From Candidatus Sericytochromatia bacterium (GTDB lineage Bacteria > Cyanobacteriota > Sericytochromatia > S15B-MN24 > VGJW01): a stretch of DNA of 64,000 nucleotides. Every line of letters starts with the position of its first letter. The stretch's first letter is position 1. The notes below the pieces were generated by a model. The model ran no database searches and had not been told where the DNA came from. It was given only the letters and a program-made list of their open reading frames with translations. Where the stretch lies: assembly GCA_035285865.1 (NCBI GenBank), contig JAYKHS010000028.1:44044-108043 (forward strand). Reading direction: 5' to 3'. This document shows, piece by piece, positions 14,970 through 37,775 of the stretch. A program made the position numbers and the translations under genes.

Positions 14970-15857
<888 letters not shown>

Positions 15858-15975
15858 GGCTTTGCTCCGCAAGGCTCGGACCCGAATGGGCCCCCATGAC
15901 CTCAGATTCGGCCGGGATGCGGTTTTCTTGAGTCTAAAGGCTGCTACAATCCGCCTCGGGTGACCGCCATCACGC

Positions 15976-17274
15976 TTGCCGTCACGCCGCGAGGGGGTGA
16001 GGGCCATCGGCGAGGAGAAGACCGAGCCCGCGACAGACCACAAGCGCCAGGAAGCGCGTCAGCGTGGTCAGGTCCTCAAGAGCCAGGACGTCATCATCGC
16101 CGTGCTGCTTTTTGCCGTGGCCTACAGCCTCGGGGCGCTGGGCGGTTTCTGGTACAAGACCCTTTACGGCTACGTCCTCGAGACCATCGAGTCTGTTCCT
16201 TCCCATGCCGCACTCGACTTCAACCTTGCGATGCGGCTCGTAGGCAAGGGCCTGCTGGTCGTCTTCATGTGCTCGGCTCCGATTGCCGCCATCGCATTCC
16301 TGATGACGTGGCTGGCGAACCTGCTGCAGGTCGGCGTGCTGTTCACCACCAAGCCCCTGTCCTTCGAAGAGGGCATCAAGAAGCTCAACCCGATCGCCGG
16401 CTTCAAGAAGATCTTCTCGATGAAGCAGGTCATCGAGGTTATCAAGGCCTTCGTCAAGATCATCGTGATCGGCTGGGTGATCTATGGCGTCATCCGCGAT
16501 GCACTCGGCGTCATCCTGAGGTCGACGGAGATGCATCCCGCAGGGGCTCTGGGCTTTGCCGGAACCCTGATCGAGGCCATCGGCAAGAAGGTGGCTCTCG
16601 CCATGGTGCTGATTGCCGTCCTCGACTACTTCCTGCAGCGCTGGCAGTACGAGAAGTCGCTGCGCATGAGCCACAAGGAGATCAAGGAGGAATACAAGAA
16701 GCTCGAGGGGGATCCCCTGGTGAAGGCCCGTCAGCGCCAGAAGCAGATGGAGATGGCCATGAGCGCGATGCGGGGCAATGTCGAGATGGCCGATGTCGTG
16801 GTCACGAACCCCACGCACCTTGCCGTTGCCTTGGCCTACAAGCCCACGCAAGGCATCCGGACGCCCAGGGTCGTCGCCAAGGGCCAGGACAGGGCGGCAC
16901 TTGAGATCCGGCGCATCGCGCAGGAGAACTTCATCCTCGTGGTCGAGGACATCGACGTGGCCCGGACGCTCTATGGTCAAGTCAAGGTCGACCAGGACAT
17001 CCCTCCCGAACTCTTCCAGGCGGTGGCAAAGATCATCGCGCTGCTCTTCAAGGGGCGGCGACGTCCTGGCCCCGTGCGGCCGGGTGCCGCTGCCCCGCCA
17101 CCGGCACCGACCGCCATCGACTTTCTGGGTTCGGGGCCTCGGCTTGACGAGGCCGAAGTGGCGGCCATGGCCGACGCAGCGCAACGCGAACTTGAGCGCA
17201 TGGCCCGGGAGCAGGAGAGCCTGCGTCTGCCCCCCCCGGACGATGGACCGACATCGCCCGGCGTTCCGGTGTGA
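15976..17274 (+). CDS. flhB: FlhB/YscU-family export-apparatus switch protein (full length, with Pro-rich C-terminal extension)
   Basis: N-terminus EKTEPATDHKRQEARQRGQVLKSQDV. Four TM segments. Autocleavage motif NPTH (VVTNPTHLAVAL). C-terminal extension rich in P/A. Confidence 0.8.
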   Translation: MPSRREGVRAIGEEKTEPATDHKRQEARQRGQVLKSQDVIIAVLLFAVAYSLGALGGFWYKTLYGYVLETIESVPSHAALDFNLAMRLVGKGLLVVFMCSAPIAAIAFLMTWLANLLQVGVLFTTKPLSFEEGIKKLNPIAGFKKIFSMKQVIEVIKAFVKIIVIGWVIYGVIRDALGVILRSTEMHPAGALGFAGTLIEAIGKKVALAMVLIAVLDYFLQRWQYEKSLRMSHKEIKEEYKKLEGDPLVKARQRQKQMEMAMSAMRGNVEMADVVVTNPTHLAVALAYKPTQGIRTPRVVAKGQDRAALEIRRIAQENFILVVEDIDVARTLYGQVKVDQDIPPELFQAVAKIIALLFKGRRRPGPVRPGAAAPPPAPTAIDFLGSGPRLDEAEVAAMADAAQRELERMAREQESLRLPPPDDGPTSPGVPV

Positions 17275-17349
17275 GCAGGTGAGGCGAGGGGTAGGGAACC
17301 CCTAGTCCTTCCGGTTCGTCATCGGGTGGAAGGGTGGAGGTTTCCGAAG

Positions 17350-18474
17350 ATGCACCTCTTGCGCAGGTCCCTGTTGTCCGCTCTGTTTGCCGCAGGCCTC
17401 GGGGTTTCCAATGCCGGCCCCGCCTGGGCCGGGCAGCTCGCGGACGCACGTCGCCACATCGAGCGCGAGGACTACAGACGGGCCATCGACGTCCTTGCCG
17501 AGTACACTCAGAAGTTTCCCAATGAGCCCCGGGGCTGGGCGCTGCTCGCCGACTGCTACCAAGGCATCTTTCCCCCGCGGGTCTCGGATGCCGAGGATGC
17601 CTTGAACCGGAAGGCCGCCGCCGAGAACAAGCGCAGCGCCATCTATCAGAGCTTCCAGAAGCTGGAGGCATCCGCGCTGTATCAGAAGATGATCAAGGAC
17701 GATCCGGAAGATCCGGTGGCGAACCTGCTGCTGGCGATTGCCCTCGTGGTGAATGACCGCGATGGCAATCGAGCCAAGGTTCAATTGGAGCGTTTCCTTG
17801 AGTTGGGGGGGGCGTCGGCCGATCTCGCGGACGCCGCGCTGGGCGCCCAAGGTCTGGTTTACACCGCGACCAAGCAGTGGGATGAGGCGCGCCTTGCTTA
17901 TGAGCGCCTGAAGCAGCGCACGGGCAGCACCTTTGCCATGGTCAAGCTGCGTGAGGTGAGCCGGCTCGAGGCCGAAGATCGGGACGCCCGGTATGCGGCT
18001 GCAAACGACCCCGCGCGGGTGGCGGAGCGGCGCTACCTCCAGCTGATCGAGGGTGCCAAGGGCCTGATTGCCGAGGGCAACAGCTCGGGGGCGGTAGACC
18101 TGCTGGAAGAGGCTGTCAAGCTGCGTCCGGAGGGCAAGGAGGCACCTCCGCTTCTGGACGAGGCTCGCATCCAGGGTGCCAAGGAGATGTTTGCCAAGGG
18201 CAAGCAGCTGACGGACGACAGCAAGTACGCCCAGGCATACGGATGTTTCGAACGGGCCATCCAGCTCGATCCGACCAACGAGGATGCCGTGCTCGGCTTG
18301 AAGCACGTTCAGAAGAGCCTGTCGGAGCTCGAGGGTCCCAAGGTGGTTCGGCGGATCATCAGTGCGACGGAAAGCGTCGAGGCCTCCGCTTCCGTTCCGC
18401 CCTCTCCCTCCGTGGTGGTGACGCCACCGGCCAAGCCGCCCGCGAAGGGGCCGGCCAAGCCGGCGGGCAAGTAG
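17350..18474 (+). CDS. secreted TPR-repeat protein
   Basis: Signal peptide (LLSALFAAGLGVSNAGPAWA). Several TPR-like helical repeats. Lys/Pro-rich C-terminus. Confidence 0.6.
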   Translation: MHLLRRSLLSALFAAGLGVSNAGPAWAGQLADARRHIEREDYRRAIDVLAEYTQKFPNEPRGWALLADCYQGIFPPRVSDAEDALNRKAAAENKRSAIYQSFQKLEASALYQKMIKDDPEDPVANLLLAIALVVNDRDGNRAKVQLERFLELGGASADLADAALGAQGLVYTATKQWDEARLAYERLKQRTGSTFAMVKLREVSRLEAEDRDARYAAANDPARVAERRYLQLIEGAKGLIAEGNSSGAVDLLEEAVKLRPEGKEAPPLLDEARIQGAKEMFAKGKQLTDDSKYAQAYGCFERAIQLDPTNEDAVLGLKHVQKSLSELEGPKVVRRIISATESVEASASVPPSPSVVVTPPAKPPAKGPAKPAGK

Positions 18475-18527
18475 ACAGGACCGTTGGCCCGGTGGCCTTC
18501 CGTCACCGGGCCAACGACCTCCTGCGT

Positions 18528-21206
18528 TCAGCGTTGGGCTGCTGCGGTGCCTTCGGCTTCAATGACGGCATGTGCCGCCGCCAGCCGGGCGATGGGTACC
18601 CGGTAGGGCGAGCAGCTCACGTAGTCGAGGCCCAGGCCGTGGGCAAAGGCGATCGAGGCGGGATCGCCCCCGTGTTCGCCGCAGATGCCCGTCTTGAGGT
18701 TCGCGCGCGTGGCCTTGCCGCCCTGCATCGCGAACCGCATCAACTGGCCCACGCCTTCCGTGTCCAGGACCTGGAAGGGGTTCGCGGGCAGCAGCTTGTG
18801 CTCCAGGTAATGGAACAGGAAGCTGCGCTCGGCGTCATCACGCGAGTAGCCCCAGGTCATCTGTGTCAGGTCGTTCGTGCCGAAGCTGAAGAACTCGGCA
18901 TCCTCGGCCAGTGTGCCGGCGACGAGCGCTGCGCGCGGCACCTCAATCATCGTGCCGAACAGCACGGGCACCGTCATGCCACGGCGCGCCTGGACCTCGG
19001 CCGCCACCTGCTCGAGCTGGGCCTTGGCAGCTTTGAGCTCGGCAGGGTGGCCGACGAGCGGCACCATGATCTCGGGCGCGCAGCGCAGACCTTCGGTCAG
19101 GACATCACAGGCCGCATCGAGGATGGCCCGCACCTGCATCGTGTTGATGTCGGGGCGCGTGATGCCGAGTCGGCATCCCCTGAGGCCCATCATCGGGTTG
19201 ACCTCGTGCATGGACTCGATCTGGCGAAGCATCCGCTGCTTTTCGGTGATCTCGTGGGCCGGGGCGCCGACGGCACGCAGGGCCGAGAGTTCCTCGTGCA
19301 ACTTCGTCGCGTTGGGCAGGAACTCATGCAGCGGGGGGTCGAGCAGGCGGATGGTGACAGGGTAGCCCTGCATCGCCCGGAAGATGCCCACGAAGTCCTG
19401 GCGCTGGAAGCCTTCCAGCGTGGCGAGGGCTGCCTGGCGCTCCTTCTCGGTGGCGCCCAGGATCATCTGCTGGACCACGGGCAGCCTGTCCGGGGCGAAG
19501 AACATGTGCTCCGACCGGCACAGGCCGATGCCCTCTGCACCGAATGCCCGCGCGCGCTCGGCGTCGTCCGGCGTATCGGCGTTCGCCCGAACCCCGAGGC
19601 GACGGGTCTCGTCAGCCCAGCGCATGATCTGCTGGAACTCGGTGCTGGGCTCCGGGGGAAGGGTCGGAACCAGGCCCCTGAGGACCTCTCCCGTCTCGCC
19701 GTTGATGGAGACGGCATCCCCCTTGTGCAGCACGGTGCCGTCCGGACACGTCAGGGTTCCTGCCTGCACGTCCACTTGCAGGGCTTCGCAGCCGACGACG
19801 CAGGGCTTGCCCATTCCCCGGGCGACGACGGCAGCATGGCTGGTGTTGCCACCGCGGCTCGTCAGCACGCCCTTGGCGGAGATCATGCCGTGGATGTCGT
19901 CCGGACAGGTCTCGGGCCTGACGAGGATGACCCCCTTGCCTTTCTCGGCCCACGCCACGGCCTCGTCCGGATCGAAGACGATCACGCCGCCGACCGTGCC
20001 AGGCGAGGCGGCAAGACCAGTGGCCAGAACTTCCGGGCTGAAGGAAGGATCGAGGCGCGGCAGCAGCATCTGGATGACGTGACCGGCATTCAGGCGCCGC
20101 ACGGCCTCGCGGGGCGTGATCAGGCCCTCACGGTACATGTCATGGGCGATGCGGGCTGCGGCAGCACCCGTTCGCTTGCCGTTGCGGGTCTGCAGCATGT
20201 AGAGGCGACCACGCTCGATGGTGAACTCGAGGTCCTGCATGTCCCGATAGTGGGTTTCCAGCATGCGGGCGACCTGGCGAAGTTGCGCCGCGGCCTCGGG
20301 AATCGTCGCGTCCAGTTCGTCGATGGGGCGGGGGGTCCGGATGCCGGCGACGACGTCCTCGCCTTGCGCGTTGGTCAGGAACTCGCCGTAGAGGCGTGCC
20401 TCGCCGGTATTGGGGTTGCGGGTGAAGCAGACCCCCGTGGCAGAATCCTCGCCCATGTTGCCGAAGACCATGGCCTGCACGTTCACCGCCGTCCCGAGGT
20501 CGTTGGGGATGCCTTCATGGCGGCGATACGTGACAGCCCGATCGCTGTTCCAGCTCCGGAAGACGGCCTCGATGGCCATCTTGAGCTGCTGCCAGGGGTC
20601 CTCGGGGAACGGGATTCCCAGCTCTCGCTCCACCAGGGCGAGGTAGGCTTCGGCCACGTCCTTGAGCGTCGCGGCATCGAGATCCGTGTCCAGCTTCGCG
20701 CCGACCTTGTGCTTGTACTGCTCCAGCAGGTACTCGAAGTTCCCGAGGCGCAGGCCGAGAACGACATTGCTGAACATCCCGATGAAGCGGCGGTACGCAT
20801 CCCACGCGAATCGGGCATTACCGGTCTGCTCGGTGACACCGGCGACGGTCGCACGGTTCAGTCCGAGGTTGAGGATCGTGTCCATCATCCCGGGCATCGA
20901 GAACTTGGCACCGCTCCGGACGCTGACCAGAAGGGGGTTGGCCGGATCCCCGAAGCGCTTGGTCGTGGTCTTCTCGACCTCGACCATCGCCTGGCGGATT
21001 TCGTCCTCGAGACCGTCGAGCTTGCGGTCGCCGCTTGCCAGGTAATCGAGGCAGACGGCCGTCGTGATGGTGAAGCCGGGCGGCACGGGCAGGCCTTGCG
21101 CAGCCATCTCGGCGAGGCCGGCGCCCTTGCCTCCCAGCAGGTCTCGGGACAGGCCCCTGCCGTCGCGGAAAAGCACGACACGGCGAGTGTCGGTCACTGT
21201 GGACAT
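18528..21206 (-). CDS. ppdK: pyruvate, phosphate dikinase
   Basis: About 890 aa. N-terminal PPDK nucleotide-binding region (GGKGAGLAEM...GLPVPPGFTITT). Central phosphohistidine region (GGNTSHAAVVARGMGKPCVVG). C-terminal PEP-utilising TIM barrel. Confidence 0.9.
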   Translation of the reverse strand: MSTVTDTRRVVLFRDGRGLSRDLLGGKGAGLAEMAAQGLPVPPGFTITTAVCLDYLASGDRKLDGLEDEIRQAMVEVEKTTTKRFGDPANPLLVSVRSGAKFSMPGMMDTILNLGLNRATVAGVTEQTGNARFAWDAYRRFIGMFSNVVLGLRLGNFEYLLEQYKHKVGAKLDTDLDAATLKDVAEAYLALVERELGIPFPEDPWQQLKMAIEAVFRSWNSDRAVTYRRHEGIPNDLGTAVNVQAMVFGNMGEDSATGVCFTRNPNTGEARLYGEFLTNAQGEDVVAGIRTPRPIDELDATIPEAAAQLRQVARMLETHYRDMQDLEFTIERGRLYMLQTRNGKRTGAAAARIAHDMYREGLITPREAVRRLNAGHVIQMLLPRLDPSFSPEVLATGLAASPGTVGGVIVFDPDEAVAWAEKGKGVILVRPETCPDDIHGMISAKGVLTSRGGNTSHAAVVARGMGKPCVVGCEALQVDVQAGTLTCPDGTVLHKGDAVSINGETGEVLRGLVPTLPPEPSTEFQQIMRWADETRRLGVRANADTPDDAERARAFGAEGIGLCRSEHMFFAPDRLPVVQQMILGATEKERQAALATLEGFQRQDFVGIFRAMQGYPVTIRLLDPPLHEFLPNATKLHEELSALRAVGAPAHEITEKQRMLRQIESMHEVNPMMGLRGCRLGITRPDINTMQVRAILDAACDVLTEGLRCAPEIMVPLVGHPAELKAAKAQLEQVAAEVQARRGMTVPVLFGTMIEVPRAALVAGTLAEDAEFFSFGTNDLTQMTWGYSRDDAERSFLFHYLEHKLLPANPFQVLDTEGVGQLMRFAMQGGKATRANLKTGICGEHGGDPASIAFAHGLGLDYVSCSPYRVPIARLAAAHAVIEAEGTAAAQR

Positions 21207-21290
21207 CGTTGTCTCCTCAGGTTGTCGGCCGCGCATCATCGAGCGGTCGGGTCGGTGGGTTATTGGGCAGCAATGAGGCTGCCGGTGGTT

Positions 21291-22190
21291 CTAGACGTAG
21301 GTTTCCTTGCGTTGGGTCAGTTCGAGGATTTCCGCGGCCGTTTCTTCGATGGCCTTGTGCGTCACGTCCACCACGGGACAACGCAGCTTGCGGAAGATGG
21401 TTTCGGCATAGTCGAGCTCGTCCGAGATGTGTTGGGCGCTGGCATAGGAGGCCGAACCCGTCAGGCCCAGGTTCTGCAGGCGCTGGGTGCGGATGTCTTG
21501 CAGCGTCGCGGGGTTCAGCGTCAGCCCGATGACGCGGCCCGCAGGCAGGGCGAAAAGTTCCTTGGGAGGTTGCACGCCCAGCACGAGTGGCACGTTGCTG
21601 GTCTTCAGGCCCCGGACCTGAGCGAGGTACATGCTGGTCGGCGTCTTGGACGTGCGGCTCACGCCGACGAGCACCAGATCGGCGAGGGCCAGGCCCTTGG
21701 GGTCCTTGCCGTCGTCGTACCGGATGGCGAACTCGATGGCTTCCATGCGGTTGAAGTAGGCTTCGTCCTTCTGGTGGAGCAGCCCGGCCTCGAAGTGGGG
21801 CTCGGCACCCAGGATGAGGCCCAGGACATTGATCAGAGCACCCAGGATATCCACGGTCGGGATGCCCTTGCGCTTGGCCTCGGCCTGCAGGGTTTCTCTC
21901 AAGCGCACGTCGACGATGGTGTAGGCCAGCACGCAGCGTGTCTGGGTGGCCAGCGTGACCATGCCGGTGATCTGCTCGATCGTTCGGGCGCGAGGCAGGC
22001 GCACCAGCTTGATGGGGTGGCCCTTGAACTGCAGGGCAGCCGCGCGCGCCACGAGCTCGGCCGTCTCTCCCGAGGCGTCCGAGACCGTGTAGACGGTCAA
22101 CGTTGCCCCATCCACAGCTGTTCCTCCGGGCCGCAAGGCCCAGTGGCATGCTATCGCCCGCGCCCCGGGTGCGTAAAGCATGGCGGGCAT
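21291..22190 (-). CDS. pyruvate, phosphate dikinase regulatory protein (bifunctional kinase/pyrophosphorylase, DUF299/PSRP)
   Basis: TVYTVSDASGETAE N-terminal signature. P-loop-like GVSRTSKTPTS. Located directly downstream of ppdK. The true start may be an internal GTG/TTG near VDGATLTVY. Confidence 0.8.
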   Translation of the reverse strand: MPAMLYAPGARAIACHWALRPGGTAVDGATLTVYTVSDASGETAELVARAAALQFKGHPIKLVRLPRARTIEQITGMVTLATQTRCVLAYTIVDVRLRETLQAEAKRKGIPTVDILGALINVLGLILGAEPHFEAGLLHQKDEAYFNRMEAIEFAIRYDDGKDPKGLALADLVLVGVSRTSKTPTSMYLAQVRGLKTSNVPLVLGVQPPKELFALPAGRVIGLTLNPATLQDIRTQRLQNLGLTGSASYASAQHISDELDYAETIFRKLRCPVVDVTHKAIEETAAEILELTQRKETYV

Positions 22191-22213
22191 TGTGAGAAGA
22201 GGGACTGCGGGGT

Positions 22214-22717
22214 ATGGAAGTTCAGGATGGTAACTTCCCCATGACCGAACGCCACGTCCTTAGCCGCCTCATCATCACGGAGGAGCTTGGTGCCCTCATG
22301 ACGCAGCAAGTCACCGAGCTTGCTGCGGAGGAGTCGATCGTGGGCTGCGCTGTTCTGGACGCCAGCGGCCTTACCTTGGCGCATGCCGGCGAGGGTCGGA
22401 TGGGAGACCCCGGCGTGGCGGCGCTGGTTGCCGCGTCCTTCCGAACCCTTGCGGAGCTTGCGAAGATGACGGGTGAGAATGCCCCCCAGACTTTCGTGTT
22501 GCCCGGAGTCGACACGAGGACCCTGTGTTTCCGGCTCGAGTCGGGTGACTTCCTGATCGTTCAGGCCACGGCAGCGACACCTGTCGAGGAGCTTGAGGCC
22601 ACCCTGCTTCCGGTGGAGCACGATCTCGGGGCCGCGCTGACGACGGCGCGTCTGGGGCCCGCTCCGGAACCGCTGCCTGACGCCTCGGCCCTCGACAACC
22701 TCTTCGGCGATCTCTAG
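22214..22717 (+). CDS. mglB: Roadblock/LC7-domain protein, MglB-like (putative GTPase-activating partner)
   Basis: Roadblock-like core (ESIVGCAVLDASGLTLAHAG...FLIVQA). C-terminal tail LPDASALDNLFGDL closely resembles the MglB C-terminus (...DDDIDNLFSE). Immediately upstream of the MglA-like gene, as in myxobacterial mglBA. Confidence 0.7.
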   Translation: MEVQDGNFPMTERHVLSRLIITEELGALMTQQVTELAAEESIVGCAVLDASGLTLAHAGEGRMGDPGVAALVAASFRTLAELAKMTGENAPQTFVLPGVDTRTLCFRLESGDFLIVQATAATPVEELEATLLPVEHDLGAALTTARLGPAPEPLPDASALDNLFGDL

Positions 22718-22726
22718 GCGATTCCG

Positions 22727-23308
22727 GTGGCCGTCCTCCACTACGGCAGGCGAGAGATCCGCTCCCGGGTGGCCTATTTCGGTCCCGTGGGCTCGGGCAA
22801 GGCCTCGAATCTCTTGGCGTTGCAGGACCTCTGGCCCGTTGAGCGCCGGGGAGCCGTCGTCGAGGCGACCCCGGAAAGCGAACGCGCCGTGCGTTGTTTG
22901 CGCCTGCCCATGCTGGGTGACCCGGTCGGCGACTGGTCGGTGCGGTTCGAGGCCTTCACGGTGCCCGGGCAGGCCCAGTTTCCGAGCACGCGGGCGAATC
23001 TGCTGGCCGGCGCCGACGGAGTCGTTTTCGTGGCCGACGCCGCCCCTGCCAGAAGAGAAGCGAACGTCGCCGCCTGGCACGAGTTGTTGGTCCACGTCGT
23101 GGCACAGGGCATCGATCCCGAGCGGATGCCCATCGTCATCCAGATCAACCACGCCGATGTCCGCGACGCCTTGGGCGTGGGGGAGATTGCGTCGCAACTC
23201 GGGGTCGAAGTCCGCCCTTCCTTCATGGCCATCGCCCGGGACGGCAGAGGTGTGCTCGAGGCCTGGATGGCAGTCGAGGGCCTGATCCGCATGGACTGGC
23301 GTTCATGA
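22727..23308 (+). CDS. mglA: MglA-like small Ras-family GTPase
   Basis: 193 aa. Aligns along its whole length with M. xanthus MglA: YGRREIRSRVAYFGPVGSGKASNL vs [24 protein letters not shown]. Conserved Arg (ESERAVRC). FTVPGQ. VDGVVFVAD. IVIQINHADV (NKxD-like). The P-loop reads GKA instead of GK[ST]. Confidence 0.85.
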   Translation: MAVLHYGRREIRSRVAYFGPVGSGKASNLLALQDLWPVERRGAVVEATPESERAVRCLRLPMLGDPVGDWSVRFEAFTVPGQAQFPSTRANLLAGADGVVFVADAAPARREANVAAWHELLVHVVAQGIDPERMPIVIQINHADVRDALGVGEIASQLGVEVRPSFMAIARDGRGVLEAWMAVEGLIRMDWRS

Positions 23309-25245
23309 AGGCCGCCTCCTCTGGCATCGGCAGCGCCCGGCCAGGCAATCTGTGGCGCGAGGCCGACGGACTGTACGACTTCATGAGCCGTGCGGTTCTC
23401 CTGCTGGTCGCCGAGCTCGATGATGCCGACGTGGCCTTCATGGTGCGGGAGGACCCTTCGCTGCCGTGGCGGGTGTCTGCGTCCCGTCCCGAATGGGAGG
23501 CCCAGTTGACGATGGCCTCGATGAGCGGTTTGCTGGCCGGCGTTCCGGCGCAGGGCTTCGAGGGATGGCAGGTTCGCGATCTGGAAGTCGAGAAGCCCGT
23601 GGCTGCCCGGCTGCTGACACGGGGCCCGGCACCGGCACAGGAATCCTGCGATGGCCTGGCGGCCGGCATCTCCCTCGTCATCGCACGGGACCGTCTGGCT
23701 CGGGCGGATGCCGGCATCGGCGAGATCGGGCGGGTGGTCCAGGCCTTGCGCCAGTTGGCTTCCAACATCCACCAGGCCGAGGATCTTTCGCTGCTGGCCG
23801 AGGTCGTCTGTGCCTCGGTGGCTCGTGCCACGGGCGCAGAGGTGGTGGCGCTCTACCAGCTCGAGGGCGATGCCTTCCGATTGACCGAGGAAATCGGCGT
23901 GCATCGCCCGGGCGTTTCCGGCATGGCGGCTGCACTGGCTGCATCGCTTGCGCCGCGGCAGCCCATTCCCCGGGATGAGGCGGGCTTTCTCTCCCAGGCG
24001 CTTTGGGAGGGGCGTCCGGTGGCCATTCCCAATATGGCGGCTGCTGACGGCGCGCGTGTCGGGCTTGGCCATTTGGGGCTGATGTCCGCGATGGCGGCCC
24101 CGCTGCTGACGCCTCTGGACGACTTGGGCGTCCTGCTCGTGGGCAGCCGTGCACCGCGCCTCTTCAGTCCGACCGAATTGTCCGAGTTGTCCGAGCTGGC
24201 CCAGGCGGCGTCGGGAGCCTTGCTGACGTGGCGGCTCCACGCGCGTGCCCAGGAGGAGTCGCGCAAGGCCAGCGAGCTCATCGCCCGGTTGCATGACCTG
24301 ACGCGCGCGACCCGTGAGGTCGGCAAGACGCTTGAGGCCAAGCACGCCTGCGAGGCCTGCGTGCGCCTGCTCCCGCAGTTCATGCGCCCTGCGGAGTGGG
24401 TTGATTGCTACCTCATCGAGGGCGACGCATGGCGGCTGGTGGCTGGCTCCAGTCCGCAGGACGCCAGCCCTCCCGAGTCCTGGCTCTACTACCTTGATCG
24501 TTCGGGCTATCCGCCGTCCTTGCGGCTCGAGTCCGATGCGCTGGCGGGCACCGGATTCGAGGATGCCGGACAGGTCCTGCTGTTTCCGATGCGCATGCAG
24601 CAGACCCTGCTTGGCCTGGTCGTCGTGGCGACGGAGCGCGACCTTGCCATGACCGGTCGGGACATGGCCGAGACGCTGGTGGCCCATGCGGCGTCGGCAG
24701 TCTTCAATGCCGAGCAGTGGCGACGGGCGCATGAGCGATCTATCACGGACCCGCTCACGGGGGTCCACAACCGTCGGCACTTTGTCGACGTCTTCGAGCA
24801 GGAACTGGCCAAGGCCGCCCGTTATCACCGGGAGTTCAGCGTGATTCTGCTCGACATCGATCACTTCAAGATGATCAACGATCGCCTGGGTCATCTGGCC
24901 GGGGACCAGATCCTGCGCGAGGTTGCGGCCCTGTTGCGCGACAACGTGCGCAAGGTCGATCTGGTCGCGCGCTACGGTGGGGAAGAATTCGCGTTGCTGT
25001 TGCCGGAGACCGGGGATGATGGTGCTCGTGCACTGGCCGAAAAGTTGCGGCATCGTTTCGAGGCACATCCCTTCAGCGACCAGGATCTGATGCCCGGGCG
25101 ACAGGTCACGGCCAGTTTCGGGCATGCCTCCTTTGGGCTGGACGGCACGACTGCCGAGCAGCTGCTGCAGGCCGCGGACGAGGCTTTGTATGCCGCCAAG
25201 CGGGATGGCAGGAACCGGGTAGGTTCGCCGTCGAGGAGAGCGTGA
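23305..25245 (+). CDS. GAF-domain-containing diguanylate cyclase (GGDEF)
   Basis: Two GAF-like regions followed by a GGDEF domain with intact active site (RYGGEEFALLLPE) and DxLTG region (ITDPLTGVHNRR). ATG overlaps the mglA-like stop (ATGA). Confidence 0.85.
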   Translation: MKAASSGIGSARPGNLWREADGLYDFMSRAVLLLVAELDDADVAFMVREDPSLPWRVSASRPEWEAQLTMASMSGLLAGVPAQGFEGWQVRDLEVEKPVAARLLTRGPAPAQESCDGLAAGISLVIARDRLARADAGIGEIGRVVQALRQLASNIHQAEDLSLLAEVVCASVARATGAEVVALYQLEGDAFRLTEEIGVHRPGVSGMAAALAASLAPRQPIPRDEAGFLSQALWEGRPVAIPNMAAADGARVGLGHLGLMSAMAAPLLTPLDDLGVLLVGSRAPRLFSPTELSELSELAQAASGALLTWRLHARAQEESRKASELIARLHDLTRATREVGKTLEAKHACEACVRLLPQFMRPAEWVDCYLIEGDAWRLVAGSSPQDASPPESWLYYLDRSGYPPSLRLESDALAGTGFEDAGQVLLFPMRMQQTLLGLVVVATERDLAMTGRDMAETLVAHAASAVFNAEQWRRAHERSITDPLTGVHNRRHFVDVFEQELAKAARYHREFSVILLDIDHFKMINDRLGHLAGDQILREVAALLRDNVRKVDLVARYGGEEFALLLPETGDDGARALAEKLRHRFEAHPFSDQDLMPGRQVTASFGHASFGLDGTTAEQLLQAADEALYAAKRDGRNRVGSPSRRA

Positions 25246-26018
25246 GCGTGGGCGATCAGTGGAAGAGCTCGGGACCCTTGCCGCCCGGTCAGACCGGCAA
25301 GCTTCGCGGCACGGGGACGCAGCGCCTCGCTTCTGGCGATGCCGTACAGGTCTCCGCCGGCGTCACCGCAGGAGGGGTGCCTTGGGATCGGGCTGCCATC
25401 GAGCGAGCCGGAGAGCTGGCTGTCCTCGTGGCGATGGGACGGCGCCTTCTGGCGGATTACGCCCGCCCGCTCGAGGCACTCAGGCTGGTGCTGCAATTGT
25501 TGCGTCCGGATGCGGATGCCGGCGGGCTCCTCGCCCACTACGGCGAGGCCGAGCGGGGCTATCTGGAGGGCCTCGTCCGGCATGTGTCGCCCAAGGCTGA
25601 CCTTCGTCGCCGCATGGAGATGGCCGGCTTGCAGATGGAAGGTGCCCGGCAGGGCATCGAGGACTTCGCCCGTCGCCTCGACGAGGCCTTGGTCTATCTC
25701 GGGGACGAGGGCATGTCCGCTTTTCGGGACCTGCGCACGGAGAGCCTGCGGGGTGTCCTGCATCCCGTCACGGTCCTGCATGCTGCCTTCGAGGCCGACT
25801 CCTACCTGCGCGAGCTGTTCCCGCCTCCGCGCATCAAGCTGCCGACGGGCACCGGTCCGCTTGTCGCCCCCGCCACCGCCACTGCCGTTCCTGTCCAAGA
25901 GTCGGTGCAGCCCCAGCGATCCGTGACCGGTGGCTTGGGCCAGGCCCTAGGCGACGGCCTGGGGCGTTTCGTTCGCAGTGCGACCCAGAGCCTTCGGCCG
26001 CCCAATCACCCCGGCTGA
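25242..26018 (+). CDS. hypothetical protein, GTG start overlapping the GGDEF stop
   Basis: 258-aa ORF with protein-like composition. Its GTGA overlap with the preceding stop suggests it is the fourth gene of the mglB-mglA-GGDEF operon. Confidence 0.5.
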   Translation: MSVGDQWKSSGPLPPGQTGKLRGTGTQRLASGDAVQVSAGVTAGGVPWDRAAIERAGELAVLVAMGRRLLADYARPLEALRLVLQLLRPDADAGGLLAHYGEAERGYLEGLVRHVSPKADLRRRMEMAGLQMEGARQGIEDFARRLDEALVYLGDEGMSAFRDLRTESLRGVLHPVTVLHAAFEADSYLRELFPPPRIKLPTGTGPLVAPATATAVPVQESVQPQRSVTGGLGQALGDGLGRFVRSATQSLRPPNHPG

Positions 26019-26033
26019 ATCTGACCTGCTCTT

Positions 26034-26816
26034 TCAGGGACGGAGGAGGCGCATCGTCAGGATGCTGCCCTCATAGAGGAGCAACAGCATCCCGGCCATC
26101 ATGACCTGGGACAGCACGTCGGGCGATGGGGAGATCACGGCCCCGAGAATGAAGGCCCCGAGAATGGCCGGCCGCCGGAATGCAGTCAGTTGGCGCCATG
26201 TCACGAATCCGGCAAGGCCAAGCGCAACCAGGACGACTGGCAGTTCGAAAACCACGCCCGTGGCGAAGAGGAACAGCGCACAGAAATCCAAGACGGAGGC
26301 GACCGTCAGCATCGGCATGATGCTGGTCGGGGTGAAGGCGACCAGAAATTGGAAACCGATGGGCAGCAGGGCGAAGTAGGAGAAGGAGAGTCCGGCGGCG
26401 AAGAGGACCACGGCCCCGATGACGAGCGGCACGGCCAGACGCCGCTCTGCCGGCTTGAGGCCGGGTCTGATGAAGGCCATGACCTGCCAGAGGATGACCG
26501 GCAGCGCGACCGTAAGGCCTCCCAGGCCCGACATGTGCAGGGTCGCGAGGAAGTATTCGGCCGGACGGGTGGTCACCAGTTTGCCAAGGCCGCCAAGGGG
26601 ACCCTCGACCGGGGCCAGCACCAGCGGGATCAGTTGATCGTGCAGGCCGAAACAGCCTAGGAAGCCGACCACGAGGGCCGCGATCGAGACGAGCAGCCGA
26701 TGGCGCAGCTCTTCCAGATGCTCGACAGGACTCATCTCGCCCTGTTTGCGCCGCGGTTCGCTGGCCGCCGGGGTGGTCACGGCGGGTGAAGGAGTCAGGG
26801 GCGCCTGAGGTTCCAT
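26034..26816 (-). CDS. tatC: twin-arginine translocase subunit TatC
   Basis: 260 aa from MEPQAPL. Six TM helices. TatC signatures EHLEELRHRL, FxFAT-type motif (ALFLFATGVVFELPVV), and PD.S/GM.LL C-terminus (SPSPDVLSQVMMAGMLLLLYE). Confidence 0.85.
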   Translation of the reverse strand: MEPQAPLTPSPAVTTPAASEPRRKQGEMSPVEHLEELRHRLLVSIAALVVGFLGCFGLHDQLIPLVLAPVEGPLGGLGKLVTTRPAEYFLATLHMSGLGGLTVALPVILWQVMAFIRPGLKPAERRLAVPLVIGAVVLFAAGLSFSYFALLPIGFQFLVAFTPTSIMPMLTVASVLDFCALFLFATGVVFELPVVLVALGLAGFVTWRQLTAFRRPAILGAFILGAVISPSPDVLSQVMMAGMLLLLYEGSILTMRLLRP

Positions 26817-27424
26817 GACTGTCGCGATCCGTGCTTGGGGGGGCGCATGTGGCTCATGATGCGCCGCATGCGGCCGGGACCGGAAGAGGGTTCCGCGAGA
26901 AAGCGCACGGCAAATGTCTGATGGCCGACCTTGCGCAGGACGCGGATACGCTCTTCGAGCGCGCCGTCTCTCAACTCGAGCGTCACCGAGACGTCCTTGC
27001 CGACCGGCAGCGAGACGGGGCTGTGGAGCAGCATGCCGCCGCTGCTGACGTTCAGGGTGTGGCCTCTCGCCACGGCGCGCTCGAGCCTGAGGATGGCCGG
27101 GACCATCGCATCGAGACGCAGGGCGCCACGCTGGTCCCGGGAGGCCAGAGGGGCCGTTCCGGGCCTGGCTTTCCCGAGACCGAACTCGGGCAGAGCGGTT
27201 CGTATCTCCAGACGCTGACGCGCATGGATGAGCGGGACCTCGACAATGCCGGTCTGGCCATTGGGCCAGGTGATGACCACGTGGTCGGGCATCTCGACCG
27301 GTACGGGGAGTGCAAGCGTCACCTGACCCGCCATCACGGAACGGACCTGACCCTTGAGCAACAGCGGGCCCCACTGGACGTGGACCGGTTGTCCCGCTTC
27401 GAGGGGAACTCCGTCCGGGGTCAC
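26795..27424 (-). CDS. PilZ-domain protein (putative c-di-GMP receptor)
   Basis: RxxxR motif (ARQRLEIR) followed about 40 aa later by the (D/N)xSxxG motif (LNVSSGGMLL). 209 aa. Confidence 0.55.
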   Translation of the reverse strand: MTPDGVPLEAGQPVHVQWGPLLLKGQVRSVMAGQVTLALPVPVEMPDHVVITWPNGQTGIVEVPLIHARQRLEIRTALPEFGLGKARPGTAPLASRDQRGALRLDAMVPAILRLERAVARGHTLNVSSGGMLLHSPVSLPVGKDVSVTLELRDGALEERIRVLRKVGHQTFAVRFLAEPSSGPGRMRRIMSHMRPPKHGSRQSWNLRRP

Positions 27425-27987
27425 GGCTGGGGATGCTGGCTGGGCTCGATGAGCCCGTAGTTGCCGTCGCGCCTGTGGTAGATGACGGCAAACTGGCCTG
27501 TCAGCCGATTGTGGAAAGTCAGGAAGTCCTTGCCCGAGAGGTCGAGCTGATAGGCGGCATCTTCGGGGGCGAGGTCCAGCACGACGGCGTCGCGGATCCG
27601 AACGATCTGCGGAGCTTCGTCCACTTGCGTGGGTTCGATGGCGGCTTCCTCGGCCACGACGGCAACCGTCTTGGTCCGGGCGTGGCGCCTGTCCTCGAGG
27701 CGCTGCTTGTGGCGCTTGAGCTGTCGGGCAATCTTGTCCGAAACCAGATCGATCGACGCATACATGTCCGTCGAGGCTTCCTCGCCCCGAATCAGGGTGC
27801 CGTTGGCATGCAGCGTCACTTCCACGATCTGGTTCTCGGAAACGGACGGGTTGCGGATGACCGTCAACTCCACATGGGCTTGGCGGATGTCCTCCATGAA
27901 ATGGGTCACGCGGCCCAGTTTTTCGCGGGCGTAATCCTTCAGGGCGTCCGTGATGACGATGTTCTTGCCCTTGATCACCAGTTCCAT
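27421..27987 (-). CDS. hpf: ribosome hibernation promoting factor (long HPF)
   Basis: MELVIKGKNIVITDALKDYAREKLGRV N-terminus typical of HPF/RaiA. C-terminal extension as in long HPFs. Confidence 0.85.
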   Translation of the reverse strand: MELVIKGKNIVITDALKDYAREKLGRVTHFMEDIRQAHVELTVIRNPSVSENQIVEVTLHANGTLIRGEEASTDMYASIDLVSDKIARQLKRHKQRLEDRRHARTKTVAVVAEEAAIEPTQVDEAPQIVRIRDAVVLDLAPEDAAYQLDLSGKDFLTFHNRLTGQFAVIYHRRDGNYGLIEPSQHPQP

Positions 27988-32089: not shown

Positions 32090-33139
32090 GTGCGTCGTGC
32101 ATGTGGGGGCCCCTTGCTCGCCGCGATCGTGGCGCTGGCCACCACGGCTTGCGGTGTCACCGGAACCGGCATCCGCGATCTGGACCGTCCTGCCGCGGCC
32201 GCCCCCGATTTGCTGCCTGCGTTCGGTGGACAGGCCCAGCTCCTTCAGGGGGCTCCGGGTGGCGAGGCCTCCTGGCTTCGTCTCCAGGACGGCGCGCATC
32301 TGGTTGTCGTGGCCTCCGATCGACCCGGCGATCGGCATCTCTTCTTCGCGACCAGTGCCGACGGCCGCAACTGGTCGGCTTTCGTGCCGTTCACGACGGG
32401 CGCGCTGACGGACGTCGAGCCGGTGCTCTTCGCCTCTGCCCGCGGTGTCGAGTGCGTGTTTGCCTCCAATCGATGGCTTGCGCAGTACGCCCTCTACCGC
32501 ACGACTTTCCGCGACGGGCGCTGGTCTGAGCCGGTTCGCCTCGAACTGGGGGCTGGTCCGCACCGTGCGCCGGCCGTCGTTCGCTCCGGGGACCGTTGGC
32601 TGCTTGCCTGGCAGGGACCCGATGGCGTGCGGGTGGCGTCCTCCGCGGACGGTCAGGCTTTCGGTCAGGGACGACTGGTTTTGGCGCAGCATGGTGATCC
32701 GACGGTGGCCGCGGTCGGTCAGCGGGTCGTCCTCGTGGCGCACCAGCGCAAGGCGCTGACGGCAAGCGTGCTCGACGGCGAGACATGGTCCGTGCCGGCA
32801 CGGGTGCCCCTCGCGGCTCCGGCCTGGTCCCCGGCATTGGCCTCCGTGGCGACCGGAAGCGTGGCGCTGGCTTATGCGACCGCCCCCTCGGATCAGGCAC
32901 CGGCTGCCCTGGGCCTTGCCCGCTGGGCAGATGCGCGCTGGACCGACATGGGCCGTGCGCTGTCCACGTCTGCCGAACTGGCCGCACCGGCATGGTGTGC
33001 CGGTCCCCAAGCACCCTTGTCGCTTCTGCTGGGTATGGACCTTTCAGGTCTCCAGCAGGGTCTCGCCCGTGTCACGTGGTCCTCCTTCCCGGAGGACGCC
33101 TCTGCCTCGTCGCCCGCCGGAGGTCCCGTCAACCCATGA
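32090..33139 (+). CDS. lipoprotein, unknown function
   Basis: GTG start gives MRRACGGPLLAAIVALATTACG lipoprotein signal. The stop overlaps the start of the next gene (ATGA). Confidence 0.5.
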   Translation: MRRACGGPLLAAIVALATTACGVTGTGIRDLDRPAAAAPDLLPAFGGQAQLLQGAPGGEASWLRLQDGAHLVVVASDRPGDRHLFFATSADGRNWSAFVPFTTGALTDVEPVLFASARGVECVFASNRWLAQYALYRTTFRDGRWSEPVRLELGAGPHRAPAVVRSGDRWLLAWQGPDGVRVASSADGQAFGQGRLVLAQHGDPTVAAVGQRVVLVAHQRKALTASVLDGETWSVPARVPLAAPAWSPALASVATGSVALAYATAPSDQAPAALGLARWADARWTDMGRALSTSAELAAPAWCAGPQAPLSLLLGMDLSGLQQGLARVTWSSFPEDASASSPAGGPVNP

Positions 33140-34458
33140 GTGCATCCATGACTGCCGATCGCCGCCTGCTGGGCGAAGTGCTCGTCTCCGGCCAGTTCAT
33201 CACGGCCGAGGACCTCAATCGGGCCTTGTCCGAGCAGCGGGCCACCAACGAGCGCTTGGGCGAGGTGCTGGTCCGTCTCGGCATCCTGTCCGAAATGGAG
33301 TTGCATGCGGTCCTCGCCTATCAGGGCGTAGGTGACATGACGCCAGCGGAGCAGGGCGCCGCGGTCCGCTACAAGTTGGGTGAGCTCCTGCTCAAGGCGC
33401 GTCGCGTCAGCAAGCCCCAGCTGGAGCTTGCGCTCGCCGAGCAGGAGCGTACCAACGAACGCCTCGGCGAGGTGCTGCTGCGACTCGGTCTGATCTCCGG
33501 CTCCGAACTCGAAGCCGTGTTGACGTGGCAGGATGATCATTCCCGTCAGGGGGCCAAGGCCGTTCGCTTCGTGCTGGGCGAGGTGCTGGTCGCCTCGAAG
33601 GTCATCACCCGCGATCAGCTCGAGCAGGCCTTGGCCGAGCAGCAGCTCTCGCGTCGCCAGATCGGGGAAATCCTCGTCGAGGCGGGTTTCGTCAAGCAGA
33701 ACCAGATCCTCGAGGCCCTGCGCATTCAGGGCAAGCTGGTCGCAGCCTCGGTCATCGGCATCATCGGGGCCGCGGCACTGACGGGCTGCGGGACCGGAGC
33801 GAGCCTGACGGGCATGAGCGTGTCGGGACTGGCTGTCGATGCCAAGGGTAACCCCGTGGACAATGTCCGCGGGTCGCGCATTCCCTACAGCACGATGGTC
33901 CGGGATGTCCGGACCGTCGCCGGCATGCAGGCCACCCAGGACTTCGCCGATGGGTCCCGGACCGTCAAGGACGTGCCCTGGTTCCACCAGGCGGCCGTGA
34001 CGCGGGACGGTTCGCCGGACAACACCTGCGCTCAGGCCGCGATGTCCAGCGTGCTTCACTATTGGCAGGGCGACGCAGCACCCGCCTATCAGCAGGTGGT
34101 CAACGAATCGAACTACTTCAATCTCGCGACCAACCAAGGCACCATCACCGAGTACCTCAAGAAGAAGGGCCTCTCGGTCAAGGCTTACAAGAACGGGACG
34201 GTCAACTACCTGAAGAGTGCGGTGGACTCCGGAAAACCCGTCATCTGCATGTTGCAGTTCGAGGTGCCGCACTACATCGTCGTGGTGGGCTACAACGAAG
34301 CTCAGGGCACCATCATCTACCACGATTCGATCGACGGTCCCAATCAGACCCTGTCGGAGCGCAAGTTCCTCAAGCACTGGCACCAGACGTCCATGAAGGA
34401 CATGCCGCTGCTGGGCGGAGGCAACTACGTGGGGCTTGCCATCGAAGCCTCCCGCTGA
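33136..34458 (+). CDS. protein with six tandem T2SSE_N/MshEN-like repeats, a TM/lipobox-like segment and a C-terminal papain-like C39-type peptidase domain
   Basis: Six repeats of LGE(V/I)L(V/L)..G.I(S/T)..(Q/E)L..AL..Q. Hydrophobic segment ending LTGCG. C-terminal domain with candidate catalytic Cys (DNTCAQAAMSSVLHYW) and His (HYIVVVGYNEAQGTIIYHDS), as in C39-like peptidases. Confidence 0.65.
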   Translation: MSASMTADRRLLGEVLVSGQFITAEDLNRALSEQRATNERLGEVLVRLGILSEMELHAVLAYQGVGDMTPAEQGAAVRYKLGELLLKARRVSKPQLELALAEQERTNERLGEVLLRLGLISGSELEAVLTWQDDHSRQGAKAVRFVLGEVLVASKVITRDQLEQALAEQQLSRRQIGEILVEAGFVKQNQILEALRIQGKLVAASVIGIIGAAALTGCGTGASLTGMSVSGLAVDAKGNPVDNVRGSRIPYSTMVRDVRTVAGMQATQDFADGSRTVKDVPWFHQAAVTRDGSPDNTCAQAAMSSVLHYWQGDAAPAYQQVVNESNYFNLATNQGTITEYLKKKGLSVKAYKNGTVNYLKSAVDSGKPVICMLQFEVPHYIVVVGYNEAQGTIIYHDSIDGPNQTLSERKFLKHWHQTSMKDMPLLGGGNYVGLAIEASR

Positions 34459-36755: not shown

Positions 36756-37688
36756 TTAGTGCATGCTCCACGTGCGTGAGGCTGCCACGCGGCCGATATT
36801 CTGCCTGAGTCGCTGGCCAATGCCAGGCTCCGCTGCGACCAGGCGAGCATAGTCCTCCAGGAGAAAGACCAGGGCCTTGCTGGCGGCGACAGCCGTGACC
36901 GTGGCACTGCGCACGGGTTTGCTCTGGATCAGGGCTGTCTCACCGACGATCTGATCCGGACCCAGACGCGCGAGCGCGAACGGACGACCATTCTGAATCA
37001 CGGAGACCTCGAGTTGGCCTTCGAGGATCAACAGGAAGCTCGTGGCCGGATCTCCGGTCTGGAAGAGCTCCATGCCTTCGGCAAGAGGGACCACGCGTGC
37101 CACGGACTCGAGGGCGAGGCGTTGTTCATCCGTCAGACCCGAGAAGACCGGATGCCGCCGGATGCGTTCGAGTCGCGCCGCGCGCTCCTCCGAGATGCCC
37201 GTGGGTTTGGGCATCGCGAACTTGCCAGTCTTCGGGGCCTGAGCGTTGGCTGGTTCGGGCTCAGGCTTCTTCTTGGACTGGCTCGCCCACTCCCGCGTGG
37301 CCACGACCCGCCCGAGGTTGCTCCGAAGCGTCCTGCCCAGCTTGGGGTCCTGCTCGCTCAGCGCCTGATAGCCTGCGTACATGAAGCGATAGAGCTTGGC
37401 ATCGGAAACGGCCACGACATCGGCTCGTCGTTCGGTGTCGTGCTGGATCAGGGGCATCTCGCCCACAAGCTGTCCCGGAGCGATGGTGGCGACCGCCATG
37501 TCCTGAACCCGCACCTCGAGACGGCCTTCCACCAGCATGAAGAAGGCGTCTGCCTCGTCTCCCGTTCGGATGACGGCCTGACCCGCCTTTGCCGTGACCC
37601 GTTCCGCAATGGCAAAAAGCGCATCCAACTCAGCGGCCGAGAGGCCCATGAACGCAGGCAGCATCTGCAATCGGGCATGGTTCAACAT
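36756..37688 (-). CDS. tandem cyclic-nucleotide-binding (cNMP/CAP-family effector) domain protein
   Basis: Two copies of the cNMP-binding core (GDEADAFFMLVEGRLEV ... GEMPLIQ and GDPATSFLLILEGQLEV ... GETALIQ). No DNA-binding domain detected. Confidence 0.7.
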   Translation of the reverse strand: MLNHARLQMLPAFMGLSAAELDALFAIAERVTAKAGQAVIRTGDEADAFFMLVEGRLEVRVQDMAVATIAPGQLVGEMPLIQHDTERRADVVAVSDAKLYRFMYAGYQALSEQDPKLGRTLRSNLGRVVATREWASQSKKKPEPEPANAQAPKTGKFAMPKPTGISEERAARLERIRRHPVFSGLTDEQRLALESVARVVPLAEGMELFQTGDPATSFLLILEGQLEVSVIQNGRPFALARLGPDQIVGETALIQSKPVRSATVTAVAASKALVFLLEDYARLVAAEPGIGQRLRQNIGRVAASRTWSMH

Positions 37689-37775
37689 CCTGCGGCTTCC
37701 TCTGCCATGCACCTACCCGTCCGGAGAGCAGGTAAACGGGGGTGGCGACGGCCACAGACGGACCCACGGTCGTCG

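Follow-up and report, generated by a model that had tools for sequence, protein, structure and literature searches.

The locus and its MglA-like G protein

We analysed a 64,000-nucleotide window of contig JAYKHS010000028.1 from a Candidatus Sericytochromatia bacterium, centring on a gene for an MglA-like small G protein that is flanked by the gene for a predicted Roadblock/LC7-fold protein on one side and by that for a GAF-GGDEF diguanylate cyclase on the other. The G protein gene and the motifs of its product, as read from the translation and the alignments, are as follows:

22727..23308, forward strand: MglA-like small G protein, GTG start, 193 amino acids, with a remodelled catalytic and Mg2+ site
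22781..22807, forward strand: P-loop, G19-P-V21-G-S-G24-K25-A26-S27, with V21 at the position of Ras G12 and MglA G21 and A26 in place of Thr26
22874..22903, forward strand: switch I and beta2, E50-S-E-R53-A54-V-R56-C57-L58-R59, delimited from the alignment tables
22958..22972, forward strand: G3 motif, T78-V-P-G81-Q82, the MglA group-1 signature, retained
23147..23158, forward strand: G4 motif, N141-H142-A143-D144 in place of NKxD, with the guanine-specifying Asp kept and the Lys lost

Residues 18-29 of the GTPase are FGPVGSGKASNL, with the P-loop codons G19 (GGT, 22781-83), V21 (GTG, 22787-89), K25 (AAG, 22799-801), A26 (GCC, 22802-22804) and S27 (TCG, 22805-07). The original prediction for this gene, made from the sequence without database searches, described an MglA-like protein whose P-loop lacks the canonical residue after the lysine (GSGKAS), and our reading of the loop as GPVGSGKAS confirms this. 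The assignment to MglA is likewise borne out. A phmmer search against the PDB aligned residues 1-188 with the Myxococcus xanthus and Thermus thermophilus MglA proteins (E~5e-30, 33% identity), while the AlphaFold2 model (pLDDT 86, pTM 0.87) superimposes in Foldseek on M. xanthus MglA-GTPgammaS (6H17) with a TM-score of 0.94 and a root-mean-square deviation of 1.6 Å, the top 14 matches all being MglA structures. When the protein is aligned with M. xanthus MglA by HMMER, A26 falls on T26 (Ras S17), S27 on T27, R53 on R53 and Q82 on Q82. Hence, the intrinsic Arg in ESERAVRC (residues 50-57, with the Arg finger R53 at 22883-85) and the PGQ glutamine are both retained, as had been claimed.

Family models capture the protein less readily. 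It stays below the Pfam gathering thresholds for Arf (PF00025, 20.1 vs 22.3) and Ras (PF00071, 13.6 vs 21.6), and its Pfam match begins at residue 71, leaving the N-terminal P-loop region unmatched by the GTPase models; canonical MglAs score 24-36 bits on the Arf model and pass the cut-offs. NCBIfam has no MglA model, and none of its cut-offs is reached by either the canonical proteins or those related to the window GTPase. An identical protein is annotated as 'hypothetical' in a Candidatus Sericytochromatia metagenome-assembled genome (MAG).

The definition of the group-1 MglAs includes Arg53 and TVPGQ, and features of G1, the G2 Thr and G4 are highly conserved in this group (PMC4316618). The window GTPase shares with group 1 the full-length sequence and fold similarity, R53, TVPGQ and a coupled Roadblock gene within four genes, and it lacks GxxxxGK[S/T], Thr54, Asp58 and [NT]KxD. 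It is accordingly an MglA homologue that is group-1-like by R53, TVPGQ and the coupled MglB-like gene. At the same time it combines a G-domain fold and degenerate catalytic motifs with purifying selection (see below), features of a putative pseudo-GTPase, whose lack of GTP hydrolysis is predicted from V21, A26, A54 and L58.

The alanine after the P-loop lysine is conserved

Few residues are as strongly conserved throughout the P-loop NTPases as the Ser/Thr that directly follows the P-loop lysine (hereafter K+1), and a recent comparative study proposes a universal catalytic mechanism centred on its pairing with the Walker-B Asp. Close relatives of the window protein are few. A collection of 5.8 billion protein clusters (90% identity) holds only two further clusters, P0002 (84% identity) and P0003 (60%), both derived from other Sericytochromatia MAGs. 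When 1.84 billion cluster representatives were searched exhaustively with HMMER, this clade was recovered through a single representative at 393 bits, with the next match at 156 bits. We also scanned 241 million metagenome records with the back-translated N-terminal peptide AVLHYGRREI, which is free of functional motifs and of the P-loop. Only two contigs, from JGI lake metagenomics, matched, both carrying the same gene, 93% identical to P0002 and with Ala at K+1. The clade thus comprises five sequence variants, from three Candidatus Sericytochromatia MAGs and two lake-metagenome contigs.

All five read GKA (GSGKAS in four, GAGKAA in one). The Ala codon is GCC in each of the three independently assembled MAG genes compared, between which synonymous divergence is about 1 or more, and it is also present in Logan read assemblies. 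Outside the clade the picture is almost uniform: among the 152 closest relatives K+1 is Thr in 150, Ser in one and Gly in one, the last being a degenerate protein whose P-loop Lys is also gone. It is Thr in 80/80 MglA loci from GTDB genomes, a control obtained by a contig scan with the clade alignment that was dominated by the generic MglA peptide DGVVFVAD and that returned canonical MglAs at no more than 37% identity and no Sericytochromatia genome. It is again Thr in 119/119 relatives of P0005, which come from a search aimed at the canonical MglAs of Sericytochromatia, P0005 itself being of Gemmatimonadota type. Altogether, K+1 is Thr or Ser in about 350 canonical MglA sequences, the degenerate protein being the one exception.

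The 193-codon open reading frame (ORF) is intact in all clade copies, and the pairwise ratio of nonsynonymous to synonymous substitution rates (dN/dS) of the GTPase gene is 0.10-0.23, like that of its neighbours, these being rough values with dS near saturation. The K+1 hydroxyl is hence truly and heritably absent. As to tempo, the GTPase evolves fastest of the four genes of its cassette (59% amino acid identity between the window and L083, as against 68-77% for the other three), and its root-to-tip distance in a neighbour-joining tree is about 1.5-2 standard deviations above those of canonical MglAs.

One explanation offered for the missing hydroxyl was that the Ser at +2 compensates for it. 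Comparison does not support this: the ortholog P0003 reads GKAA, with Ala at both positions, and Ser27 is present in 17/155 and 30/119 canonical MglAs that retain Thr26. Its frequency beside Thr26 marks it as ordinary family variation, and we reject Ser27 as a substitute Mg2+ ligand.

Wider remodelling of the Mg2+, catalytic and partner sites

To place the K+1 change in context, we tabulated the columns that are at least 85% conserved in 150 canonical relatives. All clade members depart from these at V16A, Y18F, T26A, T27S/A, T49P, F57C/Y, D58L/M/W, L76A, Y85F, V92L, S105A, K142H, R143A and N159x, and some also do so at T54 and Q82. All three residues reported to make up the Mg2+ site of MglA are affected. 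Thr26 and Thr54 are the Mg2+ ligands in the T. thermophilus MglA-GppNHp-MglB complex (PMC3199381), and Mg2+ is coordinated by Thr54 and Asp58 in that of M. xanthus MglA-GTPgammaS with MglB (PMC6785124); Asp58 is plausibly the MglA counterpart of the Walker-B Asp. At positions 26/54/58 the window protein has A/A/L and the orthologs A/T/M and A/S/W. Position 54 is thus Ala in the window, Thr in P0002 and the contig L088, and Ser in P0003. Asp58 is found in 151/155, 80/80 and 119/119 non-clade sequences of three samples and is replaced by Leu, Met or Trp in the clade.

The P-loop carries a second departure. Gly21 of MglA is analogous to Gly12 of Ras, and its G21V variant, like R53A, shows neither intrinsic hydrolysis nor hydrolysis stimulated by the GTPase-activating protein (GAP); GAP-stimulated hydrolysis is likewise lost in Ras G12V. 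Val21 is present in the window protein and P0002 and in 0/152 and 0/119 other relatives, and so adds a classical GTPase-negative change to the losses of Mg2+ ligands. At G4, NHAD occurs in all clade members and His142 is found in the clade only. With V21, A26, A54, L58 and H142, the window protein has five changes at the catalytic, Mg2+ and guanine site.

Switch I and beta2 of the window GTPase differ from MglA by T54->A, F56->R, F57->C, D58->L and F59->R. In canonical MglA, Phe56, Phe57 and Phe59 of beta2 form the hydrophobic MglB-binding patch after the beta2-screw movement (PMC3199381, PMC6785124). Phe57 is replaced by Cys or Tyr in all clade members, and positions 56 and 59 are Arg. The G3 motif of the orthologs is TIPGQ or, in P0003, TIPGH, so that Gln82 is kept in four of the five variants and replaced by His in the fifth. 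At an overall clade identity of 59-84%, the residues G19, P20, G24, K25, N28, R53, T78, P80, G81, R89, D97, N141, D144, A170 and G173 are invariant.

Variation within the clade is concentrated at the active site: four of the six Mg2+/catalytic columns vary (27, 54, 58 and 82) compared to eight of the 49 other family-conserved columns (Fisher p = 0.017), which fits a relaxed constraint on catalysis. Taken together, these alignments show the P-loop Ala to be one element of a coordinated remodelling, which takes in the whole Mg2+ site, the position equivalent to Ras G12, the G4 motif and the surface that meets the partner. The original prediction, which noted the Ala alone among these changes, is supported in part and needs to be broadened accordingly.

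Some more distant relatives show departures of their own. P0135 is a 372-residue MglA-like protein encoded on the Logan contigs L090 (1838-2956) and L091 (416-1534) and 42% identical to P0003. Its P-loop is fully degenerate (GAGCGT, without the Lys), and SVPGG and NQTD mark the loss of the catalytic Gln and the G4 Lys; it has R56 and W58 in common with the clade and possesses a C-terminal transmembrane helix. Its gene is flanked by lgt and a recJ-like gene and has neither a Roadblock nor a GGDEF gene beside it. Neighbour-joining places the protein with the clade, a hint only, as long-branch attraction is possible. P0135 may be a more decayed sister lineage of the clade, and the two together suggest a lineage drifting away from catalysis. 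Among the closest non-clade relatives (P0006-P0154), 142 of the 155 tabulated sequences exceed 230 residues and couple an N-terminal MglA domain to long C-terminal extensions. For instance, P0029 (832 residues) has a G domain with Q53/A54/R82, and by eye we noted a Ser/Thr-kinase-like region with HRDVKPDN and a TPR-like C-terminus.

A conserved cassette with a Roadblock partner and a diguanylate cyclase

The GTPase gene is the second of four in a compact cassette, and a PilZ gene is found nearby:

22241..22717, forward strand: Roadblock/LC7 (MglB-like) partner gene, 158 amino acids, predicted from the fold model and the conserved position
23305..25245, forward strand: GAF-GGDEF diguanylate cyclase, 646 amino acids (Pfam GGDEF 7.8e-50, GAF 8e-11)
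25242..26018, forward strand: fourth cassette gene, 258 amino acids, whose start overlaps the cyclase stop
26795..27424, reverse strand: PilZ-domain protein, 209 amino acids (Pfam PilZ 9e-09), with RxxxR and NxSxxG motifs

The Roadblock gene, whose mechanical ORF begins at 22214 and for which the ortholog starts point to the Met at 22241, ends 9 nucleotides before the GTPase start. Sequence comparisons failed to establish its family membership: the product scores 18.9 against a cut-off of 23 on Pfam Robl_LC7 (a weak LAMTOR5 match is likewise below its threshold), has no useful sequence match in the PDB, and aligns with M. xanthus MglB by hhalign at an insignificant probability of 2.7%. Its AlphaFold2 model (pLDDT 72) has the topology alpha-beta-beta-alpha-beta-beta-beta-alpha, including a short C-terminal helix, and the top Foldseek matches are LAMTOR2/p14 and the M. 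xanthus and T. thermophilus MglBs (TMt 0.78-0.87). The C-terminus, ...PDASALDNLFGDL (ending LDNLFGDL), resembles the C-terminal helix of M. xanthus MglB, ...SDDDIDNLFSE (MglB sequence verified, 6H5B_B), which binds MglA allosterically. Like the GTPase, and to the same degree, the protein is confined to this lineage, the entire collection containing four clusters of it. Going by the model, the upstream gene probably codes for a Roadblock-fold, MglB-like partner.

The ATG of the cyclase gene overlaps the GTPase stop (ATGA). Its GGDEF domain scores above threshold (PF00990, 169 bits; TIGR00254, 178 bits) and the RYGGEEF motif is intact, with RKVD, read from the translation, preceding it by five residues, where an RxxD inhibitory site is usually located. 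The fourth protein has no match in Pfam or NCBIfam; its orthologs are of 255-261 amino acids, occupy the same position, are 68-83% identical and give a dN/dS of about 0.11-0.13. The whole cassette (Roadblock, GTPase, GAF/GGDEF, fourth gene) is present with the same overlaps in every relative, and its flanks are conserved too, with PPDK and its regulator on one side and tatC, the PilZ gene and hpf on the other. A promoter and terminator scan of the cassette gave nothing above shuffled sequences.

The PilZ gene, which has tatC and hpf as its neighbours and is encoded on the opposite strand about 1.5 kb downstream of the cyclase gene, recurs in L081, L083 and L085, and its product is a candidate receptor for the cyclic di-GMP (c-di-GMP) that the cassette would produce; its membership in the system is suggested by this position. 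P0005, the nearest canonical relative examined, has a PATAN-MglA-MglB-PATAN/TPR-CheR-CheB context with no cyclase. There is no second MglA in the 64-kb window, and Pfam scans of 20 other window ORFs revealed no type IV pilus or gliding genes. The suggestion that the protein, termed a paralog in the original prediction, has a regulatory rather than a motor-polarity role fits an operon that includes a diguanylate cyclase.

A nucleotide-binding, hydrolysis-deficient MglA derivative?

We favour the view that the window GTPase is a nucleotide-binding but hydrolysis-deficient MglA derivative which, together with a co-evolved Roadblock partner, would regulate the co-translated cyclase. This reading draws on sequence and predicted structure, and we assign it a probability of roughly 0.55. 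On this view the protein belongs to the group-1 MglA branch as a derived form confined to one lineage: the fold of the G domain and the core residues in contact with the nucleotide (GxxxxGK, R53, the TxPG backbone, N141 and D144) were kept, while the apparatus that hydrolyses GTP with the help of Mg2+ has probably been lost. The protein most likely retains binding of guanine nucleotide, and its GTP hydrolysis is probably very slow or nil. Instead of a GAP-timed switch it may thus constitute a binding module with a long-lived GTP state, or one reporting the GTP/GDP ratio. NHAD keeps the guanine-specifying Asp, and affinity is probably weaker or exchange faster. The beta2 partner surface appears to have been rebuilt from a Phe patch to Arg-x-x-Arg alongside the co-encoded MglB-like Roadblock protein, and the likeliest output is the control of c-di-GMP synthesis, not type IV pilus or gliding-motor polarity.

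Several observations speak for this proposal. That GxxxxGK, R53, N141 and D144 never vary in the clade argues for continued binding of a guanine nucleotide, and on account of the constant Asn141 and Asp144 we reject a switch to a non-guanine nucleotide as the principal explanation. In T. thermophilus MglA the off-rates of GDP and GppNHp are unaffected by EDTA, and MglA-GDP is without Mg2+ (PMC3199381); nucleotide binding by MglA being Mg2+-independent, the loss of Mg2+ ligands need not abolish it. The loss of Thr26, Thr54 and Asp58 would then cripple Mg2+-dependent catalysis rather than binding. The dN/dS of 0.10-0.23 in turn indicates that the gene is functional. The idea of an altered nucleotide or Mg handling, advanced in the original prediction, is the best reading of the protein, in which the other two Mg2+-site residues are lost along with the K+1 hydroxyl.

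Other points weigh against this proposal. The invariance of R53 and the retention of Gln82 in four of the five variants, with His in the fifth, would be unexpected if hydrolysis were valueless. A His is the catalytic residue of the translational GTPases. The T26N, K142A, N141A and D144A variants of M. xanthus gave no stable MglA, and T26/27N lowered GTP affinity (PMC3000849), so retained nucleotide binding is not guaranteed. Among the group 2 MglAs, which are without the G4 Lys, CvnD9 nevertheless has GTPase activity (PMC4316618). Further, the conservation statistics are thin, coming from only five closely related clade sequences with dS near saturation, and it is from gene order that we infer the cyclase to be the effector, just as retained binding and lost hydrolysis are deduced from the motifs.

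The first alternative, a serious one though clearly less probable, is that of a working GTPase switch with unconventional metal coordination, in which hydrolysis still serves as the timer. Water, the phosphates and other residues would then hold the Mg2+, or else the Roadblock protein, the cyclase or the fourth protein would contribute the missing groups in trans. The invariant R53, T78, P80 and G81 and a position 82 that is Gln or His speak for such a switch; MglB-type GAPs reposition MglA residues, so that a co-evolved partner could rescue activity (PMC3199381, PMC6785124), and group 2 MglA is active without the G4 Lys (PMC4316618). However, this switch would have to accommodate five independent changes at the catalytic centre, including the classical GTPase-negative V21. 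Moreover, both members of the K+1/Asp pair are lost, and in P-loop NTPases replacing either is reported to abolish activity (PMC9599734). The variability of positions 27, 54, 58 and 82 within the clade also argues for a relaxed constraint.

Less likely still than an unconventional but active GTPase is a nucleotide-free pseudo-GTPase, whose G domain would be a scaffold or adaptor with P-loop remnants kept for fold stability; we regard this as improbable. The alteration of G1, G2 and G4 alike, the absence of the P-loop Lys in the related P0135 and the failure of the Pfam GTPase models on the N-terminal P-loop region agree with it, as do the instability of the M. xanthus T26N, K142A, N141A and D144A proteins and the reduced GTP affinity of T26/27N (PMC3000849). 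Nevertheless, the invariance of GxxxxGK, N28, R53, N141 and D144 at 59-84% clade identity is hard to explain for a protein free of nucleotide, and nucleotide binding by canonical MglA is Mg2+-independent (PMC3199381).

A more speculative form of the favoured proposal, to which we give only a slim chance, is a natural Mg2+-independent G protein in which the conserved R56 and R59, on either side of the lost Asp58, fill or neutralise the former metal site and GTP is bound metal-free and unhydrolysed. As there would be no hydrolysis, its occupancy could track the GTP/GDP pool and, with the Roadblock protein, gate the cyclase. GTP is the substrate of diguanylate cyclases, and c-di-GMP synthesis would thereby come under a G protein that senses the supply of GTP.

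Lastly, neither a sequencing or assembly error nor decay into a pseudogene can account for the change: although a single ACC->GCC transition yields the Ala and the source is a MAG, the orthologs are not uniformly GK[ST], as an error would have it, but uniformly GKA, with the GCC Ala in three MAGs and Logan read assemblies and the Ala likewise in two JGI contigs, and the 193-codon ORFs, the dN/dS of 0.10-0.23 and the translationally coupled operon are all preserved.

Comparison with known systems

The M. xanthus and T. thermophilus MglA/MglB systems (6H17, 6IZW, 3T12) are the nearest in full-length homology, fold, Arg53, TVPGQ and the adjacent Roadblock partner gene, and the C-terminal helix of that partner has DNLF, as in M. 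xanthus MglB. The window protein differs from these MglAs in A26, V21, NHAD and the loss of T54 and D58, its clade in Phe57->Cys/Tyr and the Arg at 56 and 59, and its operon in having a GAF-GGDEF cyclase where theirs have a motility or chemosensory setting. With V21 and without the Thr26 hydroxyl, it naturally resembles the engineered MglA variants G21V, T26N and T26/27N, which are GTPase-negative or impaired in nucleotide affinity (T26N and T26/27N: PMC3000849). Unlike in those mutants, its changes arose naturally, occur together and are conserved in a gene under purifying selection, with Ala rather than Asn at position 26, whereas T26N was not stably produced in M. xanthus (PMC3000849).

Bdellovibrio MglA likewise has a natural non-Gly residue at position 21 (S21) and a network tied to c-di-GMP signalling, being without MglB and in a hub with a c-di-GMP receptor; its link to a GGDEF-like protein, however, is indirect, via RomR and a TPR protein, and not through an operon. 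The group 2/3 MglAs (conservon CvnD type) share the absence of the G4 Lys (Wuichet and Sogaard-Andersen 2015, PMC4316618), but have GTPGQ or DxxG and no Arg53, in contrast to the R53 and TVPGQ of the window clade (PMC4316618). Genes for the group-1 Rup GTPases neighbour diguanylate cyclase/phosphodiesterase output genes. For neither group 2/3 nor Rup is a departure from GxxxxGK[ST] reported in the text examined.

Hydrolysis-deficient GTPases that have lost catalytic residues and retain nucleotide binding occur in eukaryotes as Rnd and RhoH. The K+1 hydroxyl itself is reported as naturally lost only in nucleoside monophosphate kinases, which have Gly there; the loss is argued to suppress futile hydrolysis while nucleotide still binds (PMC9599734). 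All of these belong to unrelated lineages with other folds or subfamilies, and their likeness to the window GTPase is mechanistic only. In our literature searches, neither an MglA with a non-canonical K+1 residue or a dismantled Mg2+ site nor an mglB-mglA-GGDEF operon came up.

Other features of the window

About 10 kb from the cassette, 32785..34458 (forward strand) codes for a 557-residue protein in which DUF2949 and a C39-like peptidase domain accompany a weak match to PATAN (DUF4388/PatA_N), a domain often encoded close to MglA/MglB genes. A further second-messenger component nearby is a protein with two cyclic-nucleotide-binding domains (36756..37712, reverse strand). An FlhB/YscU-family export protein (15976..17274, forward strand) is followed by a TPR protein (17326..18474, forward strand) and adjoined by an XerC-like integrase (14970..16043, reverse strand). 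Related MAGs preserve this arrangement, which points to an export apparatus of the flagellar or type III kind in the lineage. Owing to the 67% G+C content there are long antisense ORFs, and we rejected the mechanical ORFs 18243..22244 (forward strand, 1333 residues) and 22774..25125 (reverse strand, 783 residues) as artefacts antisense to the PPDK and to the GTPase and cyclase genes, respectively. The listed tatC ORF (26034..27491, reverse strand) is over-extended across the PilZ gene.

Significance

The locus presents a bacterial Ras-like G protein that is without the K+1 hydroxyl and the other two Mg2+-site residues and has a G12V-like change, and that is nevertheless under purifying selection alongside a predicted Roadblock partner. 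Its reach is limited to a tiny clade confined to uncultured Sericytochromatia. If binding without hydrolysis is true of it, the protein would be, to judge by our literature searches, the first pseudo-GTPase described in the MglA family and a natural test of how far the MglA/MglB module works without a GTPase cycle. It would also provide a direct operon-level link between the MglA/MglB module and c-di-GMP synthesis.

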